DNA of 58,727 nucleotides from positions 1-58,727 of the forward strand of contig CAYUCQ010000001.1 of assembly GCA_964443535.1 (NCBI GenBank), given 5' to 3'. The notes beneath the pieces were generated by a model that saw only the letters and a program-made list of their open reading frames with translations, was not told the origin of the DNA and did no database searches. The first letter of the stretch is position 1; every line of letters begins with the position of its first letter. This document shows, in pieces, positions 637 to 58,471 of this stretch. The stretch comes from Candidatus Woesearchaeota archaeon. Lineage in GTDB: Archaea; Nanobdellota; Nanobdellia; Pacearchaeales; GW2011-AR1. Both the position numbers and the translations under genes were made by a program.

Positions 637-729
637 GGTTCCGTAGCTCAGCCTGGCAGAGCACTAGGCTCTTAAACAATAGTTGATAGAGTTACCTAGG
701 TGTCGCGGGTTCAAATCCCGTCGGGACCA
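637..729 (+). tRNA. tRNA-Lys(CUU) with a 19-nt canonical intron (675..693)
   Basis: Acceptor GGTTCCG/CGGGACC, D arm GCTC-AGCCTGGCA-GAGC, anticodon stem CTAGG/CCTAG, T arm GCGGG-TTCAAAT-CCCGT, discriminator A, no encoded CCA. Loop is CT-CTT-A then intron. A 4-bp helix (669-672/688-691) is flanked by two 3-nt bulges, giving a bulge-helix-bulge motif at position 37/38. Confidence 0.85.
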
Positions 730-50810: not shown

Positions 50811-51203
50811 TTACCAGACTTCTAATTTAACATCTATATTTTCAAAATCTTTCTTATCTCTTGTTATAAGAATAAGTCCATTCGCTCTAGATATAGAAGC
50901 AATCATTAAATCAAATTCTTTAGTTTGTTTTCCAATTTTATTTAATCTAGAATACTCTTGGCCAAATGTTTGGCAAGAATCAATATTTAGATCCAAGACT
51001 TTAACAGAATCTAAAAAATCATTAATAATGATAAGTTCTTTCTCAGATCTAGAAGATAAAAAAGCTCCTTTGAATAATTCACATAAACTTATGCAGGTTA
51101 TAGATAAATCGCTATGTAGACTAATATTCCTTATCTTTTCTATGATAATTTTATTCCCTCTTAAAAAATCGACAACGATATTTGTATCTAAGCAATACGT
51201 CAA
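50811..51203 (-). CDS. vapC: PIN-domain toxin (VapC-like)
   Basis: YCLDTNIVVDFLRGN, LCELFKGA, FDLMIASISR and LITRDKKDF. Confidence 0.75.
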   Translation of the reverse strand: MTYCLDTNIVVDFLRGNKIIIEKIRNISLHSDLSITCISLCELFKGAFLSSRSEKELIIINDFLDSVKVLDLNIDSCQTFGQEYSRLNKIGKQTKEFDLMIASISRANGLILITRDKKDFENIDVKLEVW

Positions 51204-51427
51204 AATTTAACCTCTCTTAATTTAGCTTTTTTTCTATCCTCATAAATTTTCTTTTTAATTGCATCCCATTCATTTGCATTATCAGAAAACGCCCCCGCAA
51301 AGTCCATTATATTCTTTCTCTTCTTTCCCATACTAAGTTCTATCACAGTCTCAGAAAAAGACTTGCCTTTCTTTAGAACCTTTAATTTCTCATAGGCATC
51401 ATTTGATAAAGATATAACTTTAACCAT
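51200..51427 (-). CDS. VapB-like antitoxin
   Basis: From the ATG at 51427: MVKVISLSNDAYEKLKVLKKGKSFSETV. 4-nt overlap with the PIN gene. Confidence 0.6.
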   Translation of the reverse strand: MVKVISLSNDAYEKLKVLKKGKSFSETVIELSMGKKRKNIMDFAGAFSDNANEWDAIKKKIYEDRKKAKLREVKF

Positions 51428-51461
51428 ATATGCGCATATGCATACGCATATATAAAACTTT

Positions 51462-52513
51462 CTATTGAGTTGTATTCCATAAAATATCAATAATTTCTCT
51501 TTTTAATCGTTCTCTTAATTTATAACTCTCTGCCCAGACTGAATAAGCCTTCCATCCACGATAACTATAAAAAATATCTCCAAAGCCCATCTTGCCATCT
51601 CTATATAGTCCTATTTTTCTCTTCATATTCCTAATGTTTCTTTTTCTCAATAATTTCCATTTTTTATAATTTCTAAATCCTACAAAATCAATACCGCGGT
51701 AGATAGAAATAATTCTAGATTTATTAGGATGCAAACAGAGTTTTAATTTTTGGCTCAAGAAATTCTCAATTTCTATTTTCCAAGTTTTCAATTGCTTCAA
51801 AGAGTAATGCAAAATAACAAAATCATCAACATACCTAATATAATACTTAATCTTCAAAATATGTTTTACAAAATAATCTAACTCATTTAAATAGACATTA
51901 GCAAAAAATTGAGAAGTCAAATTGCCGAGAGGCATGCCTTTCAGAGTTACTCTCTCTCTCTCTGCCTTCCAAAGTTCGCATTATTCAAAATTCTTCTAAT
52001 CAATTGTATAATTTTTTCATCTTTTATTTTTTTACAAATAATCTCCATTAAAATATCATGATTAACTTCTTGAAAATAATGCTTAATATCTGCTTTTAAG
52101 CAAAATCCAGAATAAGTGAAATTACGAGTTACCTTTCTTCTAAATTCATCAAATCTTTGCAAAGCAAACAAATTGCCTTTATTTTTCTGATTTGCACAAG
52201 AATCGTAAATAAAGCTTTTTTCAAAGATTTTTCCTATGATATTAATTAGTGCGTGATGAACAATTCTGTCTCTAAAATCTGATTTTGAAATAACTCTTGT
52301 TTTAGGATCTCTTAAAACAAAGGTAGTTAATGGAAGAGGACTATAACTCATATTAATAAGTTCATTATGCAATTCAAGCAGATTCTTCTCAAGATTCTGC
52401 TCAAAGTCAATAATATCTTGTCTTTGAGTTTTACCTTCTCTTGCTTTCCTCCAAGCAATTACTAAATTACCCATAGAGCAAAAAATAGGATAAAGATTTT
52501 TGTAAGTTTCCAT
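51462..52513 (-). CDS. DGR-type reverse transcriptase, split into two ORFs (52513..51947 and 51935..51462) by a frameshift in an (AG)7 tract
   Basis: The N-terminal ORF carries RT motifs 1-3 (PKTRVISKSDFRDRIVHHAL; CLKADIKHYFQEVNH). The C-terminal ORF starts MPLGNLTSQFFANVYLNELD (DGR-RT-like GNLTSQ motif) and has YVDDFVIL plus a thumb. Removing one AG unit gives a continuous ~349-aa protein. Confidence 0.85.
51950..51963 (-). repeat. (AG)7 dinucleotide tract ((CT)7 on the plus strand) at the RT frameshift site
   Basis: Plus strand is CTCTCTCTCTCTCT. It lies inside the only ~34-nt window where both RT reading frames are open. Confidence 0.9.
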
Positions 52514-52537
52514 AATATTATCCTGACTATGTTATGA

Positions 52538-52622
52538 GCTATTCTGCCATTCTCATTCGAGTTAGCGAGGTTATCGTTGTTCGAGTTGAGATTAAGGTTG
52601 CTGTTCAAGTTCAACCTCGAAA
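52538..52622 (-). repeat. DGR template repeat (TR), 85 nt
   Basis: Aligns to VR 52960..53047. On the coding (minus) strand it is rich in AAC/AAT codons (LNLNSNLNLNSNNDNLANSNEN). Confidence 0.9.
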
Positions 52623-52820
52623 GGTATAGCCTATTGCTCTTCATATCACCATAACTTCAGTTTTCATATAATCAAAGAGATTAATATTCTATCAATTAAA
52701 TCTTCGCTATATTTACTATCTGTCATTATTGTATTTTATAACTATAAAGTCATAAGCAACAAGCGTGTAGCCCAATTATGTTCCAACATAATCAGGAATC
52801 TAACTAATAAGAATCTATTT

Positions 52821-53657
52821 TTATTCTTTTCCCTGCAATATTCTTAACGCTCTCTCTCTTCTCTCCAAGAGTTCGCTTTCTTGTCTTCCAAATTCTGCTT
52901 GAATTTCAGAGATATATCTGCCCAAAAAATTTTGCGAACTGGCTTCGCCACGAACTAACGCTACCCTGCCACTCCCACCCGAGCAAGCGAGGTAACCGCC
53001 GCCGTACGAGCCGAGATAAAGGCCGCAGTCCAAGCCCAACCCCGAAATTCCAGAATCTCTAGCATACCAAGTTCTACTTCCTTTTGTATCAAATAAAGGC
53101 AGACCTAATACATCTGTCTCTGTAAATTTTTTTCCATTCCATTTTCCATCAAGTCGTTCATCATAAACAACACTAAAATCATCTCTTGGAATAACTTTCC
53201 ATCCATATCCGGCTTTATCTTCAGATAAAGCAACATCTAATCCACTTATTAAAACAGGAAGCTTTAATTTTCCTTGTTTATTTTCAATATGAGGAATAAG
53301 TTCTTTAATAACTTCTTTATTTGGCGCATAACTATCTCTTTCACTTCTTAAAACAAGAGAAGGCGTATCAGAATAATGTTTATCTTTTACTATCTCCATA
53401 ATTTCAGGTCTGCTTAAATCAGCCAAGTTAGCAACTCTTATTCCTAAAGGTCTTAATATGCTGTCTACTCTTGCAGCAACAGGAAAATTGCTTCCCAACA
53501 TAGTCTTAGTTTTTTCATCATACCAAACATTTCCAAAACTCTTAACTTGTTCGTAAATACTTTTTGCGCCAGCCCCTTCTATAAAACTCTTAATAAATAT
53601 AGTTGGAACTCTCCAATTAAAATTTCCTTCTGCTTCAGTTTTAGTCTCTAAACTCAT
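52821..53657 (-). CDS. DGR target protein with C-terminal variable region (C-type-lectin-fold-like)
   Basis: 278 aa. The VR encodes SGLGLDCGLYLGSYGGGYLACSGGSGRVALVR, against TR-encoded SRLNLNSNLNLNSN-NDNLANSNENGRIAH. No signal peptide or TM seen. Confidence 0.8.
   Translation of the reverse strand: MSLETKTEAEGNFNWRVPTIFIKSFIEGAGAKSIYEQVKSFGNVWYDEKTKTMLGSNFPVAARVDSILRPLGIRVANLADLSRPEIMEIVKDKHYSDTPSLVLRSERDSYAPNKEVIKELIPHIENKQGKLKLPVLISGLDVALSEDKAGYGWKVIPRDDFSVVYDERLDGKWNGKKFTETDVLGLPLFDTKGSRTWYARDSGISGLGLDCGLYLGSYGGGYLACSGGSGRVALVRGEASSQNFLGRYISEIQAEFGRQESELLERRERALRILQGKE
52940..52950 (-). promoter_or_regulatory. small GC hairpin (TGGC-GAA-GCCA on the coding strand) 10 nt 3' of VR; candidate DGR homing-associated hairpin
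   Basis: Seen only next to VR, with no equivalent 3' of TR. The stem is only 4 bp, so this is weak. Confidence 0.3.
52960..53047 (-). repeat. DGR variable repeat (VR), 88 nt
   Basis: 23-24 mismatches to TR, all at TR adenines on the coding strand, plus one in-frame 3-nt insertion. Confidence 0.9.
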
Positions 53658-53744: not shown

Positions 53745-55193
53745 TTAAGTCTCAATAACTTTCTTGATAATCTCCATAGCTCTTTTCTTATCAACTTTGC
53801 CGCTAAATTTTGCTATAATCATTCCCATGTAAGCGTTTTCTCTTAATCCAGGCTTTTCCATTACAATTTTCCTGACTTCTTCTTCTAATTCATCATTTCC
53901 AGCTTTTTCAACTTTAACTGCCTCTTCAGCACTCTTGCCGTTTAAAATATCCCATAAAACTTCCCTGACATGCTCTTTATCCAGCTTTCCAGCGCAAACT
54001 CTCTCAAGCACGCTCTCCAAAATTCTCTCATTTAAAACGCCTTTAACCTCTTCAAAACTTTTCCCGCTCTTTTTCGCAAAATCATTTCTCCATAATGCAA
54101 TCATCTTGGCAATCAAATTAGCATCCTTATCATAAACATTCATTAATAAATTAAATTCTTCAAGCAGCTCGCTGTCAGCTAAGATTAAGTTGGACATCTC
54201 TTCACTTAGCCCTTTCTTTCTTAATTCGTCCCTAATATCTTGCTTTAATCTCGGCAGCTCTTTCTTTATCTTATTAATTTTCTCCCTGCCAATTTTCAGC
54301 AAAGGCAGATCTGTTTCAGGATACATTCTTGCGCCTCCTGGAATTGGCCTTAAGAATTCAGTTTTTCCATCAGGCAAAGCGTTTCTTACATTTCCATCTT
54401 TCTTGCTATTCTTCAAATCCTCAATCTGCCTTTCAATTTCCAATTCAGTTGTTTTTACCATTATTTTTGGCTCTTGAAATCCTTTTATCTCAACTCTATC
54501 ATGCCCTTTAATTGAAATATTCAAATCCTGTCTTATAGTCCCTATTCCTCTTTTTACACGGCAAGCTCTCAAAATCTCGCCTAATTTTAAGGCAGTTTCC
54601 TTTATCTGTTCAGGAGTTTTCAAGTCAGCATTTGTGCCTATTTCAACAAGAGGAGTTCCAAGCCTGTCAAGCCTGTAAATACTCTCTGCTCCATCCTTGC
54701 TTACTAATCTCGCAGAATCTTCCTCAATCATTATAGTTGCAATGCCTACTTTTCCAAAACTCATTTCAATATATCCATCATGCGCAATTAAAACAGTTCT
54801 CTGAAATCCAGAAGTATTGCTTCCGTCAATAACAGTTTTCCTCATGATTTGGCTAAAAGGATAAATCTCGCAATTCAAAAGAAGAGCAATTTTAATTGCT
54901 TCATCTAAAGCAGCTTCATCAATGAAGTGCGGCGGCTCTTCATCTAATTCAACCAAGCATGTGCTGTCAGAATATCCTTCATAAGCAAACTCTTTTCTTT
55001 TTGAAGCTTCATATTCAACAGCTGCATCAATCTCGCCTGACTCTCCTGCAACAGGATGCAGCCTTCTCCTCACAATAAAATGCGGCTTGTCACTCCTTAA
55101 AAAAGCAGGGCATCTGCAGAATAGCTTTCTTCCTGTATCAAGCTGCTGATGAATTTCTAATCCTGCTTTCATTCCTAATTTTGCATAGTCCAT
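53745..55193 (-). CDS. gatE: GatE-like (GatB/GatE family) tRNA amidotransferase subunit, short form lacking the AspRS-like insertion domain
   Basis: N-terminus MDYAKLGMKAGLEIHQQLDTGRKLFCRCP (GatE-type IHQQL), RQDLNISI, ARMYPETDLP and a YqeY-like tail. 482 aa. Confidence 0.75.
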   Translation of the reverse strand: MDYAKLGMKAGLEIHQQLDTGRKLFCRCPAFLRSDKPHFIVRRRLHPVAGESGEIDAAVEYEASKRKEFAYEGYSDSTCLVELDEEPPHFIDEAALDEAIKIALLLNCEIYPFSQIMRKTVIDGSNTSGFQRTVLIAHDGYIEMSFGKVGIATIMIEEDSARLVSKDGAESIYRLDRLGTPLVEIGTNADLKTPEQIKETALKLGEILRACRVKRGIGTIRQDLNISIKGHDRVEIKGFQEPKIMVKTTELEIERQIEDLKNSKKDGNVRNALPDGKTEFLRPIPGGARMYPETDLPLLKIGREKINKIKKELPRLKQDIRDELRKKGLSEEMSNLILADSELLEEFNLLMNVYDKDANLIAKMIALWRNDFAKKSGKSFEEVKGVLNERILESVLERVCAGKLDKEHVREVLWDILNGKSAEEAVKVEKAGNDELEEEVRKIVMEKPGLRENAYMGMIIAKFSGKVDKKRAMEIIKKVIET

Positions 55194-55237: not shown

Positions 55238-56101
55238 CTATCTCTTTTTAGTTCTGAAAAGAGGGAGAACTTTCTCTTGAAATAACTCAAGCATTTCTGG
55301 CGTGTTAAATGCCTCAAATAGCTGTGCTTTTTTATATTCGTGAACATTTCTTAATATATCATCAATAGCTGCTCCAGTAACATTTTCAAAATTAAAATTC
55401 TTTCCATTCACGCGCAAATTTTGGGCAACTTTAATCATTCTCCTAAGAGTAACGTATCTTTCAATTCCAATTTTATCAGGACTTATTTCCTGAAATTCAG
55501 GGTTGAAGTATTTCTCCATTCTTAATCCCTGTCTAAACGAATCATGGTATTTATGAATAACAATTCCTTCTTTTAGCCCATCATAAAAGTCGCTTTTATC
55601 TTGAACCAAGGTATCAGCTATATCTCCAGTCATATTCTTCGTGTGCAAAACAGGCAATCTCACAATATTTTTTTCTATGCCTAAAGAATTAACAAATTCA
55701 TCAACTTGAAAAGGATGCAAGTATTTTCCTCTATCCTTGTCAAATACTCCTAAAAGAAAAAATTTCTCCATATATTCAGGATTATAGCAAATATGGCCAA
55801 AACCATAATGAGTCCATTCTCCGCATAAAATTTTATCTTCAGGCAAGCTTTGCAATTCTGGAATAGAGTGAGCCCAATTAAAAAGATCGCGAAAATAAAA
55901 AGCACTCAAACCATTTGAAGTTAATCTACGAGCACGGCTATAAGGTGTGACAATGCCGTCTTCTTTTCTTATAGAACAATTTCCCCCATCAATCTTTTCG
56001 TATGCAAAAAGGCCACTATGAGCGCGCTCTGCTCCACTATATTCTTCAACATGCATAAACTTAAAATTTCCTTTAGTATTGCTTGCCATTTTCTCAATCA
56101 T
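55238..56101 (-). CDS. ATP-dependent RNA ligase-like nucleotidyltransferase (Rnl2/PF09414-like)
   Basis: Motif I YEKIDGGN (KxDG), motif III LCGEW, motif IV EGIVIH, and motif V-like MEKYFNPEF. Confidence 0.65.
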   Translation of the reverse strand: MIEKMASNTKGNFKFMHVEEYSGAERAHSGLFAYEKIDGGNCSIRKEDGIVTPYSRARRLTSNGLSAFYFRDLFNWAHSIPELQSLPEDKILCGEWTHYGFGHICYNPEYMEKFFLLGVFDKDRGKYLHPFQVDEFVNSLGIEKNIVRLPVLHTKNMTGDIADTLVQDKSDFYDGLKEGIVIHKYHDSFRQGLRMEKYFNPEFQEISPDKIGIERYVTLRRMIKVAQNLRVNGKNFNFENVTGAAIDDILRNVHEYKKAQLFEAFNTPEMLELFQEKVLPLFRTKKR

Positions 56102-56820
56102 ATATACTCCCTTGGATTAAATGCCTGAAGATAATCTCTATATGAAACTCCTTCGGGACGAGTAATAAAAGCATTTATTGGTCTGTAAATATGTGAATCA
56201 GGAGAAATTACTGCAGTTCTGTATGTTCCGCCAATAGCAGAAGGTACGTCTCCACTCTTTTCTTGACGAAGGCGAAACTCAAACAAAGATTTAACAGCCA
56301 ATTTAATCGCGCTGTTAACTAATTCCAAATCATTTTCAGAAATAGGGTCTTTTCCATTAACTTTTTTCCCGCCTTTTTTCCCGCCATTAACTTCTTCATG
56401 GAGAGATTTTATAATCTCTTGAAGCTTGTCAACTTCTACATGATAAGATTCGCTATAATGATAATCAAAATTTAGCTCTTCCAAAAGGCATTTAGATCCG
56501 TGATGATAACGTTCTGTGAGATCGCATATTTCTTTTCCTATTTCTGATCTTCCATTCTTTCTCCCCTTACAGCCATGTTCCATAACCTCATTATAGATGC
56601 CTCTGGTAAAAATAACATAATCTGCCATATTTCCAAGATTGCTAAAAAACTTTCCAGCTATTTTATGAGGTGCTTCACCAGACCTTTTTTGCTTAGCTAT
56701 TTCTTCAAGATCTATTAAAGTCCCAGTATCCACTATTAAAACAGGGATCTGTCCTGCACTTGGCTGAAAATAATTATGTATTACCTCGTATAGCTCGTTC
56801 TTGCTTTTCGCTTTACTCAT
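56098..56820 (-). CDS. PIN-like nuclease domain protein with Lys/Gly-rich insert
   Basis: Four acidic positions at PIN-like spacing: VLIVDTGTLID, IYNEVMEHG, ISENDLELVNSAIKLA and AVISPDSHI. Its stop overlaps the ligase ATG (ATGA). Confidence 0.45.
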   Translation of the reverse strand: MSKAKSKNELYEVIHNYFQPSAGQIPVLIVDTGTLIDLEEIAKQKRSGEAPHKIAGKFFSNLGNMADYVIFTRGIYNEVMEHGCKGRKNGRSEIGKEICDLTERYHHGSKCLLEELNFDYHYSESYHVEVDKLQEIIKSLHEEVNGGKKGGKKVNGKDPISENDLELVNSAIKLAVKSLFEFRLRQEKSGDVPSAIGGTYRTAVISPDSHIYRPINAFITRPEGVSYRDYLQAFNPREYI

Positions 56821-57196: not shown

Positions 57197-58471
57197 CTAA
57201 ACGCCCAATCTCTCGCTAATCTCCCCAGAAAAATTCTCAAGCATTTTTTCTTTAACTTTTCCAATCCATCCTCTATGCCCCATTACCCATCCTAATTTTA
57301 CAAGTGCTGTCTCACTAAGCATATCTTCAAGGAAAATTACACCTGCATCAACAAGCTCTCTTCCATTAGAATAAACATAAGGATCAAGCCTGCCAAAAAT
57401 TGTCTGGCTGGCAGCACATACTGCAAATCCTTCTCTAATATGCTTCTTCAGCTTTGCAATCCAGCTATGGCTTGCCTCGCTTGGCGCAAGATGCCCAAGC
57501 CCTGCTGCCTCAACAATCACTCCTTTGTATTTTAAGGCATAATAATCAAGTATGTCTGCACTCTGCCCAGGATAATATTTTACCAAAGCAATTTTATCAT
57601 TAAAAGCAACATCTAATTCAACTCTTTTCTTCTCATCTCTCTTATTATAATCTCCAATAAATTCAACCTTGTCTTTCCAAACTTTTGCAATTTCTGCAGA
57701 ATTAACTGGTTTGAAAGCATCTCTTCTTGAGCTGTGCATTTTCCTTGTCTTTGTCCCGCTCATTGCATAGCAAAAATCATCATTAATTGAAGCATGTCCT
57801 ACAATAAAAACTCCAGAGCAATCAGTTAAAGCCATTCTTGCTGCGCACTGCAAGTTCAAATTAGCATCACTGCTTGCTCTGTCAATGCTTTTTTGAGAAT
57901 ATGTCAAAACAACAGGCTTGCCTAAATTTCTCAAAAAAAAGCTCAAGGCTGCAGCAGTATAGCTCAAAAAATCAGTCCCATGAGTCACAATAATTCCTCT
58001 AATGTCTTTGTCATTAAGCATCTTTTCAGCACTTTCAGCTATCTTGACCCAATGCTCGCTTGTCATTGACTCAGAAGCAATCATAAAAGGCACATCTATC
58101 TTTTTCACATTTGCAATATTAAAAATTTCAGGATAAAATTTTGCAAACTCTCCAATTTCTGCCAAATGCTTGACTCCTCCTGTCCTTGAATCTAATTTAG
58201 ACGCAATAGTTCCTCCTGTTATAATCAACCCAATGCTCTGCAAGCCTTCTTTGTTCTCAAGTTTAAGGCTCTCTTTATCATCTTCCTTAAACTTCTTCAA
58301 AACTCTTCCTGCAAGAATATTCTCTCTAGGAATTCCTATATTATATCCCGAATCCAATTTTATAAACAAGATGCTAGATTCAGAACTCTCCAAAACCACG
58401 CCATCTAATTCTTCCTTAGCCAGCCTTAATCTAACTCTATCTCCAACATCAAAATTCAGTTCAGCCATCAA
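57197..58471 (-). CDS. gatD: Glu-tRNA(Gln) amidotransferase subunit D (asparaginase-like)
   Basis: An N-terminal GDRVRL beta-domain, plus asparaginase motifs ITGGTIAS and VTHGTD. Confidence 0.88.
   Translation of the reverse strand: MMAELNFDVGDRVRLRLAKEELDGVVLESSESSILFIKLDSGYNIGIPRENILAGRVLKKFKEDDKESLKLENKEGLQSIGLIITGGTIASKLDSRTGGVKHLAEIGEFAKFYPEIFNIANVKKIDVPFMIASESMTSEHWVKIAESAEKMLNDKDIRGIIVTHGTDFLSYTAAALSFFLRNLGKPVVLTYSQKSIDRASSDANLNLQCAARMALTDCSGVFIVGHASINDDFCYAMSGTKTRKMHSSRRDAFKPVNSAEIAKVWKDKVEFIGDYNKRDEKKRVELDVAFNDKIALVKYYPGQSADILDYYALKYKGVIVEAAGLGHLAPSEASHSWIAKLKKHIREGFAVCAASQTIFGRLDPYVYSNGRELVDAGVIFLEDMLSETALVKLGWVMGHRGWIGKVKEKMLENFSGEISERLGV

Follow-up and report, generated by a model that had tools for sequence, protein, structure and literature searches.

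Avd is found in about 74% of diversity-generating retroelements (DGRs), and Wu et al. inferred that an "Avd-independent" homing mechanism must exist (PMC5758913). The DGRs described from DPANN and CPR hosts have targets without a recognizable domain ("unknown VR"), often lack Avd, and show TR-VR indels of 3n nucleotides (PMC5758913). With regard to the RT motifs, Weinberg et al. 2017 tie RT-10 alone to a DGR and treat DGR work of the others as speculation (PMC5737381). The papers that we could search make no mention of a link of RT-16 or of an AG microsatellite to DGRs, and a search for DGRs together with phase variation yielded nothing specific.

Against this background, we analyzed a stretch of 58,727 nucleotides (hereafter the window) from Candidatus Woesearchaeota archaeon. 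It holds a genuine DGR in a DPANN-type archaeon, ordinary in kind, as DGRs of groundwater DPANN archaea have been catalogued before, and the locus may carry a microsatellite on/off switch within its reverse transcriptase (RT), as judged from comparison of related sequences.

Locus layout and archaeal setting

On the minus strand, the order is target gene with VR, RT-16 RNA, TR and RT, and Avd is absent. The features of the locus, in window coordinates, are:

52821..53657, minus strand: target (variable-protein) gene, 278 aa, from the open reading frame list
52960..53047, minus strand: VR, 88 nt, codons 204-233 of the 278-aa ORF
52836..52928, minus strand: predicted long C-terminal alpha-helix after VR, residues 244-274, missing in some homologues
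52621..52796, minus strand: RT-16 RNA (Rfam RF03019), 78.1 bits against a gathering score of 50, E=1.5e-12, model positions 1-158 of 158
52538..52622, minus strand: TR, 85 nt, with 30 adenines and, in the reading frame of VR, 12 AAY codons
52514..52537, minus strand: TR-RT spacer, 24 nt, with AGGA at 52521-52524, 8 nt ahead of the RT ATG
51947..52513, minus strand: N-terminal RT ORF, 188 aa, motifs 1-3, with TAA just past the AG run
51950..51963, minus strand: (AG)7 microsatellite, site of the frameshift, in the loop that precedes RT motif 4
51462..51935, minus strand: C-terminal RT ORF, 157 aa, with GNLTSQ (51909-51926), YVDD (51822-51833) and the thumb region

A sequence-only reading of this DNA had proposed a DGR in an archaeal context, and both parts were borne out: the RT is closest to bRT, the TR/VR mismatches are adenine-only and VR lies within the target ORF, while GatD/GatE and the occurrence of homologues of both the target and the RT in MAGs of Woesearchaeota, Pacearchaeota and Nanoarchaeota indicate the archaeal setting. 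VR is part of a protein-coding target, and TR is non-coding and adjoins the RT. That reading had put the RT 25 nt beyond TR; the adjacency stands, with the distance to the RT ATG corrected to 24 nt. Because this spacer is 24 nt long, a 140-nt Sp region like that of BPP-1 cannot fit.

Related loci were gathered with a 10-sequence target alignment, and their TR/VR pairs were located by asymmetric A-tolerant Smith-Waterman alignment; BLAST-style self-comparison overlooked pairs of ~74% identity. More than 30 related loci share the target - TR - RT order and likewise have mismatches specific to adenines. As for Avd, no ORF lies between target and RT, since that gap is RT-16, and neighbor clustering of 81 related loci yielded no recurrent or conserved small ORF.

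Adenine-specific differences between TR and VR

Compared on the minus strand, TR and VR differ by 23 substitutions, all 23 at TR adenines (hypergeometric P = 5.9e-15), and by one 3-nt indel. Exhaustive placing of a single 3-nt gap gave 23 substitutions with the gap at TR positions 43-49 and 24 at positions 41-42, and in every placement with 23 or 24 substitutions all mismatches fell on TR adenines of the coding (minus) strand. We thus recovered by exhaustive one-gap alignment what the sequence-only reading had reported, namely 23-24 substitutions according to indel position with none off adenine, and its TR (52538-52622) and VR (52960-53047) coordinates were reproduced exactly. Its figure of six unchanged adenines among 30 holds for the 24-substitution placement; under the 23-substitution placement, 23/30 adenines are changed and 7/30 unchanged. 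The replacement of TR-encoded Asn codons by Gly, Asp, Tyr, Cys or Ser codons in VR was also confirmed, as was the position of VR in the 3′ part of the 278-aa gene. VR has one codon more than TR, and one more than 69 target-family members. Its sequence is a direct sign of past adenine mutagenesis and retrohoming at the locus.

With A-tolerant scoring across the 58.7-kb window, the TR-VR match scored 100.5, whereas the next match reached at most 26.5 and shuffled TRs at most 33.5; therefore the window contains exactly one VR, and no second VR was detected in it by this scoring. The TR/VR homology stops at ...GGCAG(G/A)(G/A)TAGC. A search for a BPP-1-like hairpin after VR gave a 76-nt DNA fold of -6.6 kcal/mol (z=-0.64) in which no strong hairpin formed. 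We rejected an RNA-pairing role for the conserved GAATAGC at TR 3′ ends: the element is conserved because the end of VR encodes a conserved protein motif (G-R-V/I-A), and the AGGA that follows it is a ribosome-binding site.

In four other assemblies (L001-L004), VR carries the window's bases at all adenine-derived sites that are present; it is identical to the window's in L002-L004 and differs in L001 by a 24-nt deletion only, in a between-sample comparison of consensus assemblies, which mask within-sample variation.

Classification of the reverse transcriptase

Once its frame is repaired, the RT aligns over its full length with bRT of Bordetella phage BPP-1 (E=3e-39; PDB 8ub7, established by sequence as BPP-1 brt), whereas group II intron RTs reach 3e-19 at best and retron-type RTs reach 9e-18. 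Its LGNLTSQ fits the DGR motif 4, [I/L/V]GxxxSQ. These HMM and sequence searches against DGR, group II intron and retron RTs, which the sequence-only reading had suggested, group the RT with DGR enzymes. The GNLTSQ and YVDD motifs that it had noticed are present, but the reading frame that carries them is interrupted, which it did not mention.

Could the RT instead be of group II intron, retron or defense type, standing beside an ordinary duplication? Sources do label its relatives "retron-type" or "RT/maturase family," and the top NCBIfam match by name is group_II_RT_mat (TIGR04416). Yet that match scores 147.9 bits against a cut-off of 300, retron_St85_RT reaches 43.7 bits against a cut-off of 235, and an Rfam search returned no group II intron or retron RNA at E<=1. 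Defense-type enzymes fare similarly, with PADLOC DRT models giving at most 112 bits and the phage DGR-type RT family phrog_1423 giving 375 bits, and duplication does not yield adenine-only mismatches. We consider that the locus is almost certainly not of this kind, and treat it as a DGR in what follows.

RT-16 RNA at the 5′ flank of TR

The RT-16 RNA fills the gap from the target stop to TR, and its 3′ end abuts the 5′ end of TR. The arrangement is conserved: RT-16 adjoins TR in 38 of 39 related loci and scores 48.2 bits, just under threshold, in the 39th; it lies 107 nt upstream of the RT ATG here, against a median of 114.5 nt in 38 relatives; and nine of the ten pairs in its long-range closing stem have compensatory changes. 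From this position and conservation, we propose that RT-16 is the structured 5′ part of the template RNA, which would recruit or position the RT in this Avd-less clade. A curated RNA family that was an orphan thereby gains an exact genomic setting: it is conserved immediately 5′ of TR in a DGR clade that lacks Avd and has thousands of RT relatives. As such, it is a specific candidate RNA for the homing without Avd that Wu et al. inferred.

Target protein

At least 71 proteins make up the family of the target, which matched no Pfam or NCBIfam domain. Among 70 target homologues, entropy was 2.16 bits at positions corresponding to A-containing TR codons, compared with 0.47 bits at A-free ones (p=3e-4). 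The sequence-only reading had raised a C-type lectin fold for the target C-terminus. AlphaFold models were confident (pLDDT 89.5 and 93.8, with the full-length protein and a trimmed domain searched), but searches with them gave no significant match: the best Foldseek hit in PDB had E 0.12, and that of the full-length model in BFVD was a crAss-like phage tail fiber with E 0.013. Among the Foldseek matches that fell short of significance were C-type lectin CRDs (langerin; CD23, TM 0.46) as well as two DGR proteins, TaqVP and AvpA, and a sequence profile of the target found nothing among PDB sequences. A C-type lectin fold, as judged from these predicted models, is thus not demonstrated.

A microsatellite interrupts the RT

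The RT is split into two ORFs (188 and 157 aa) within the (AG)7 run, and the frame would be restored by (AG)6 or (AG)9. Since the RT is frameshifted, the element as sequenced cannot make a full-length enzyme, a lesion that bears on its present activity and not on its identity as a DGR. No other dinucleotide run in the window reaches 12 nt. In five other assemblies the tract has seven or eight AG units, and either length leaves the RT out of frame; (AG)7 is found in the window, L093 and L094, and (AG)8 in L001 and L092. Apart from the tract, these loci are ~99.5% identical with a single, synonymous change in the RT, and the RT is frameshifted in every assembly of the window's lineage.

A second lineage (L018/L099) shows both states. 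Its contigs are 99.6-100% identical and carry four discrete alleles over 11 contigs (L018, L095-L104), with the RT truncated at (AG)8 and (AG)10 and intact at (AG)9 and (AG)12. Thus ON and OFF alleles both occur in the second lineage, whereas the window's lineage has OFF alleles only. The VR consensus in the second lineage is the same with the RT ON or OFF, so we observed no tie of tract state to VR turnover. Across 410 kb of related loci, six dinucleotide runs reach 12 nt or more, and all six are in this RT loop. Carriers of AG runs are scattered over the RT tree, and RERERE appears in the loop in 9 of the 120 top RT clusters.

Polymerase stutter is common at dinucleotide repeats and several assemblies may share read sets, which would fit an error of sequencing or assembly at this low-complexity repeat that masks a really intact RT. 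Runs of 14-16 nt are, however, well inside Illumina accuracy, and each allele is present in at least two assemblies from different assemblers or samples. The discrete alleles of the second lineage also speak against an artefact, as does the fact that an in-frame version of the window's RT was never called among 5.8 billion proteins, in which the best match was 75% identical. We therefore regard this account as very improbable.

It is also improbable, though somewhat less so, that the broken enzyme would still work, be it as two associating polypeptides or by ribosomal frameshifting. Twelve nucleotides past the stop of the first ORF, the second has an ATG of its own, at the conserved Met of GMPLGN with AAAGG ahead, and the break falls in a surface loop whose length varies among relatives. 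In contrast, the RT is a single polypeptide in 80/80 relatives, and there is no slippery heptamer; programmed frameshifting was rejected because (AG)7 and (AG)8 demand opposite shifts.

A more serious competitor is simple decay, in which the frameshift is the first lesion of a pseudogenizing RT and the AG polymorphism is neutral drift with no switch. It remains a rival because the window's lineage shows OFF alleles only, with (AG)7 and (AG)8 as its only states and no intact allele in the protein database. VR is static between samples, with the 24-nt deletion in one of them, and among related loci the RT is truncated in L009 and missing within 6 kb in L005-L008. Against decay, both RT halves, tract aside, contain neither stops nor indels and can be aligned from end to end with intact relatives; the sole RT change between haplotypes is synonymous, and TR and RT-16 are intact. 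Moreover, the sister lineage has interconvertible ON/OFF alleles, and AG runs recur at this loop alone in several lineages. On balance, we find decay rather unlikely.

The explanation that we favor, and consider probable as a whole, is that the locus is a chromosomal DGR of a DPANN-archaeal clade and that this haplotype would be in an RT-OFF state with its current VR frozen, because the tract has seven units (eight in the sister samples).

Proposed mechanism and significance

By analogy with the Bordetella phage DGR, the RT-16 and TR transcript would be reverse-transcribed by the RT with misincorporation opposite adenines, and the cDNA would then replace VR, recoding about 17 surface positions of the target. 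The (AG)n tract in the surface loop before motif 4 would be hypermutable, with the frame restorable in principle at (AG)6 or (AG)9, and could serve as a stochastic on/off switch for the hypermutation machine. We advance only tentatively, as possible but short of an even chance, the fuller proposal that the AG tract phase-varies the RT across a large Avd-less DPANN DGR clade, freezing and releasing the variable protein, and that RT-16, fused to the template's 5′ end, assumes the scaffolding or priming work done in the Bordetella phage DGR by Avd and the 3′ Sp/RT-10 RNA.

Long dinucleotide repeats in about 470 kb (this and the related loci) occur only in one RT loop. Should the AG tract prove to be under selection as a contingency tract, a hypermutation device would be controlled by a simple genetic switch, and archaea would provide a case of repeat-mediated phase variation.

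Comparison with known systems

The DGR of phage BPP-1 (mtd-avd-TR-brt) resembles the present locus in its RT family, its I/LGxxxSQ motif, a TR adjoining the RT, a VR in the 3′ part of the target and adenine-specific changes concentrated in AAY codons. It differs in carrying avd and in residing in a phage, whereas this locus is chromosomal, archaeal and without avd. Here a structured RNA lies 5′ of TR, whereas in BPP-1 RT-10/Sp lies between TR and brt (PMC5737381). In the present locus, moreover, no stable hairpin is predicted after VR, the target is not demonstrably a C-type lectin, and the RT is broken by a microsatellite.

In an annotated phage collection, the top match was the archaeal virus ANMV-1 (KP703175), with an RT 40.5% identical over 97%. 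Its DGR (Paul et al. 2015, PMC4372165) shares the order target, TR region, RT, but it is viral and its target is a tail-fiber-type protein; RT-16 found no match in ANMV-1 even at E<=1.

The SSR contingency loci of Haemophilus, Neisseria and Campylobacter (PMC3315296, PMC6321876) likewise have an intragenic tract that varies among near-identical genomes and toggles the frame. Unlike in those bacterial loci, the putatively switched gene here encodes the RT of a hypermutation element, in archaeal hosts.

The closest setting is that of the groundwater DPANN/CPR DGRs (the "CPR set" of Wu et al. 2018; Paul et al. 2017, as cited in PMC5758913), which come from the same host groups. The contigs are from Rifle groundwater projects PRJNA268031 and PRJNA292723, the habitat of the DPANN/CPR DGR set, and a domainless target, a missing Avd and a 3-nt TR-VR indel are found here too; the difference is that the RT of the present locus is frameshifted. 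Compared with the Rfam description of RT-16 (RF03019), the RNA here is likewise a full-length match above the gathering score and adjoins an RT gene, and relative to the RT-16 of Weinberg et al. it is placed exactly, ending at the first TR base of an Avd-less DGR clade.

Identification of the retroelement

All parts of the diversity-generating retroelement (DGR), comprising the target gene with its variable region (VR), an RT-16 RNA, the template repeat (TR) and the reverse transcriptase (RT), lie on the minus strand.

Features of the DGR locus (window positions)
52821-53657, minus strand: target ORF, 278 aa
52960-53047, minus strand: VR, 88 nt, codons 204-233 of the target ORF
52621-52796, minus strand: RT-16 RNA (Rfam RF03019), full-length match, 78.1 bits (gathering score 50)
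52538-52622, minus strand: TR, 85 nt
51947-52513, minus strand: N-terminal RT ORF, 188 aa, ending at a TAA directly 3′ of the (AG)7 run
51950-51963, minus strand: (AG)7 run inside the RT gene
51462-51935, minus strand: second RT ORF, 157 aa, beginning 12 nt later with MPLGNLTSQ

With a single 3-nt gap placed at every position in turn, the best alignments of TR with VR carried 23 substitutions (24 at two neighboring gap placements), all at TR adenines and never at a C, G or T of TR (hypergeometric P = 5.9e-15 for 23 of 23 mismatches on A). This exhaustive alignment upheld the TR/VR coordinates and adenine-only mismatches of the sequence-only reading, and amended its count of unchanged adenines among the 30 in TR from six to seven in the 23-substitution alignment. 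Under an adenine-tolerant score the pair reached 100.5, compared with at most 26.5 for the runner-up in the window and at most 33.5 for shuffled TRs, and a single VR was found in the 58.7 kb. Codon reading agreed with the earlier placement of VR in a 278-aa protein, with twelve AAY (Asn) codons of TR, read in the VR frame, changed to G, D, Y, C or S. The changes were strongly biased toward A>G (18 of 23, with five A>T and no A>C), which may stem from either selection favoring Gly/Asp codons or a misincorporation bias of the RT; a similar G bias was seen in a second lineage (L099, 947-1034). The extra VR codon of the window lineage occurs in no other of 70 sequences compared, and so represents an insertion in VR instead of a loss in TR. 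No BPP-1-like hairpin was found 3′ of VR.

The RT is encoded by two ORFs, not one, and the GNLTSQ and YVDD motifs noted earlier are both present in the 157-aa ORF. With one AG unit fewer or two more, the frame is restored to give a 349-aa RT, residues 4-333 of which (full length) matched PDB 8ub7 chain A with E=3.3e-39; over an aligned stretch of 102 residues, 8ub7 matches Bordetella phage BPP-1 brt at 100% identity. The repaired RT reached 375 bits against the phage RT family phrog_1423, and its top annotated match in the phage collection was the RT of archaeal virus ANMV-1 (40.5% identity, 97% of length). A group II intron or retron RT was rejected, given weaker E-values than for bRT (2.9e-19 for the best group II intron RT, 9e-18 for retron-type RTs) and family models below cut-off (147.9 bits where the NCBIfam group II model requires 300, and 43.7 bits where retron St85 requires 235); PADLOC DRT models gave at most 112 bits. 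Judged by these three matches and the sub-cut-off scores, the RT is of the DGR type. The DGR interpretation stands, for a real element of the known DPANN/groundwater kind; the sequence-only reading had itself acknowledged that DGRs are on record from DPANN-type archaea.

More than 4,000 RT relatives were found at E<=1e-60, those with a source name being assigned to Nanoarchaeota, Pacearchaeota or an uncultured archaeon. Among the best 80 metagenomic RT loci (56-66% identity), the RT was uninterrupted in all 80, and at least 30 had a TR of ~85-90 nt located 25-45 nt upstream of the RT and a VR 400-450 nt or more upstream with adenine-specific mismatches. Several of these pairs include 3-nt gaps; 3n indels between TR and VR were also reported by Wu et al. 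(PMC5758913). Target homologs adjoin these RTs in a dozen loci. Five further loci, L009 (6758-7348) and L005-L008, retain a target-family gene whose C-terminus is VR-like and rich in N/D/Y/G; the RT is truncated in L009, and in the others neither an RT nor a TR lies within 6 kb. Such loci represent decayed cassettes or else DGRs that act in trans.

Target protein

None of the 71 target homologs, six of which come from MAGs labeled Woesearchaeota, Pacearchaeota or 'archaeon', has a Pfam domain. Across 70 homologs, mean VR entropy was 2.16 bits at A-containing TR codons vs 0.47 at A-free codons (p=3e-4), with a residue spectrum of N/D/Y/G/C/S at A-codon positions, a contrast that is the family-wide footprint of DGR diversification. 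Structure prediction, as proposed earlier, yielded a confident AlphaFold2 model (pLDDT 89.5 with 70 homologs; pLDDT 93.8 and pTM 0.91 for residues 21-243), in which the VR segment is modeled as strands and loops close to where the globular part ends, with a long helix predicted after it (244-274). Foldseek returned no significant structural neighbor in PDB (best E 0.12), the non-significant list being mostly C-type lectin CRDs (langerin; CD23, TM 0.46) with the DGR variable proteins TaqVP and AvpA at E ~2, and a profile search of PDB sequences gave no match. The top BFVD match was a crAss-like phage tail fiber (E=0.013, probability 0.82). A C-type lectin fold is neither confirmed nor excluded by the predicted model.

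AG microsatellite and RT state

The same Rifle groundwater population is represented by five further assemblies that span the tract. The (AG)7 allele occurs in the window, L093 (SRR1658465) and L094, and (AG)8 in L001 (SAMN03202996) and L092 (SRR1658462); neither allele is in frame, and the two differ in the frame they produce. Between the haplotypes there are 6 substitutions over 7.3 kb, with a single, synonymous one in the RT. Plain decay of the RT in place of a tract switch is the main rival explanation, and no in-frame allele of the window RT was found in a collection of 5.8 billion proteins, where the most similar full-length RT has 75% identity.

The second Rifle lineage (RT cluster P0119) has four tract alleles on contigs 99.6-100% identical.

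Tract alleles of the second lineage
(AG)8, L095 and L096: 194-aa truncated product
(AG)9, L018 and L099-L104 (seven contigs): intact 350-aa RT
(AG)10, L097: truncated product
(AG)12, L098: intact 352-aa RT

Apart from the (AG)7 tract, no dinucleotide run in the window reaches 12 nt. Related loci totaling 410 kb contain six runs of 12 nt or more, all AG and all in the same loop (RT residues 177-198), and the 328 kb lying beyond the RT genes contains none; the carriers are scattered across the neighbor-joining RT tree, and among the 120 closest RT clusters, nine encode RERERE at this loop. Of all sites in these loci, the AG tract is thus the most mutable, toggling the RT between intact and truncated, and we infer that selection may maintain it as an on/off switch. 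In a comparison of the RT relatives P0151 and P0119, the sequence near the tract is RFQRERERERRDES in one relative and TISERERERLDES in its close relatives, which looks, from protein sequence, like an upstream 1-nt shift offset by a tract-length change.

VR was identical at every adenine-derived position present in all five assemblies covering it (window, L001-L004). The sole difference was in L001, an in-frame 24-nt deletion (window 53013-53036) flanked by GGCT microhomology, with every remaining adenine-derived base kept. A new homing event would re-randomize these positions, so their constancy suggests that, at the consensus level, no homing separates the samples; the static consensus is consistent with the RT being off. 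In the second lineage, ON and OFF alleles share one VR consensus. Nine contigs of this lineage agree at all adenine-derived positions, and L096 and L104 have a common C>A change in VR at a non-adenine TR position.

RT-16 RNA upstream of TR

RT-16 fills most of the 198-nt gap between target and TR, starting 24 nt past the target stop codon and overlapping the first two bases of TR with its 3′ end. It scored above threshold in 38 of 39 related loci (48.2 bits in the other) and ends at TR in all 39; in 38 relatives the median distance from its end to the RT ATG was 114.5 nt, equal to TR plus a ~25-nt spacer with an AGGA-type ribosome-binding site. RNAalifold on a plain MAFFT alignment recovered its long-range closing stem, with double compensatory changes in 9 of 10 pairs. 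The template RNA in this clade would comprise RT-16 and TR. With a TR-RT spacer of only 24 nt (not 25, as first counted), the structured RNA for recruiting or priming the RT would lie upstream of TR, not downstream; from anatomy alone, we infer that RT-16 may serve this role.

Genomic context

GatD (57197-58471) and GatE (53745-55193) flank the locus; between these two genes, at 55238-56820 on the minus strand, are a 240-aa ORF without a family match and an RNA-ligase-domain ORF. Directly downstream of the RT is a VapB antitoxin/VapC PIN toxin pair (50811-51490, minus strand), with an AT-rich near-palindrome, TATATGCGCATATGCATACGCATATATA, at 51427-51454, where it separates the RT stop codon from the VapB coding region; sibling contig L001 has an additional ParE-type pair past the TGT gene. 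The independent assemblies L002, L003, L004 and L093 are broken inside the RT gene's 5′ half or close to the stop codon of the target (window 52274, 52449), and no repeat ends at these points. A 93-nt tRNA at 637-729 (plus strand; Rfam 55.3 bits) went undetected when ARAGORN was run in bacterial mode; it is probably an archaeal tRNA with an intron.

Comparison with known systems

As far as we searched, the RT-off state via a polymorphic (AG)n recurring at one RT loop is new for this locus and clade, as is RT-16 as a conserved 5′ flank of TR in an Avd-less clade. No Avd-like ORF occurs at the window locus and none is conserved among 81 loci; avd is missing from 26% of DGRs, for which an Avd-independent mechanism was inferred (Wu et al., PMC5758913). 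The target, having no recognized fold, resembles the 'unknown VR' classes of the same authors' DPANN/groundwater DGR set (PMC5758913). Motifs RT-1 to RT-19, located close to RT genes, come from Weinberg et al. (PMC5737381), who linked RT-10 alone to a DGR and speculated that the others might be so too; our search brought up no subsequent paper connecting RT-16 with DGRs. The ANMV-1 DGR lacks RT-16, unlike the window clade, and whereas in BPP-1 RT-10 lies between TR and brt (PMC5737381), here RT-16 lies 5′ of TR.
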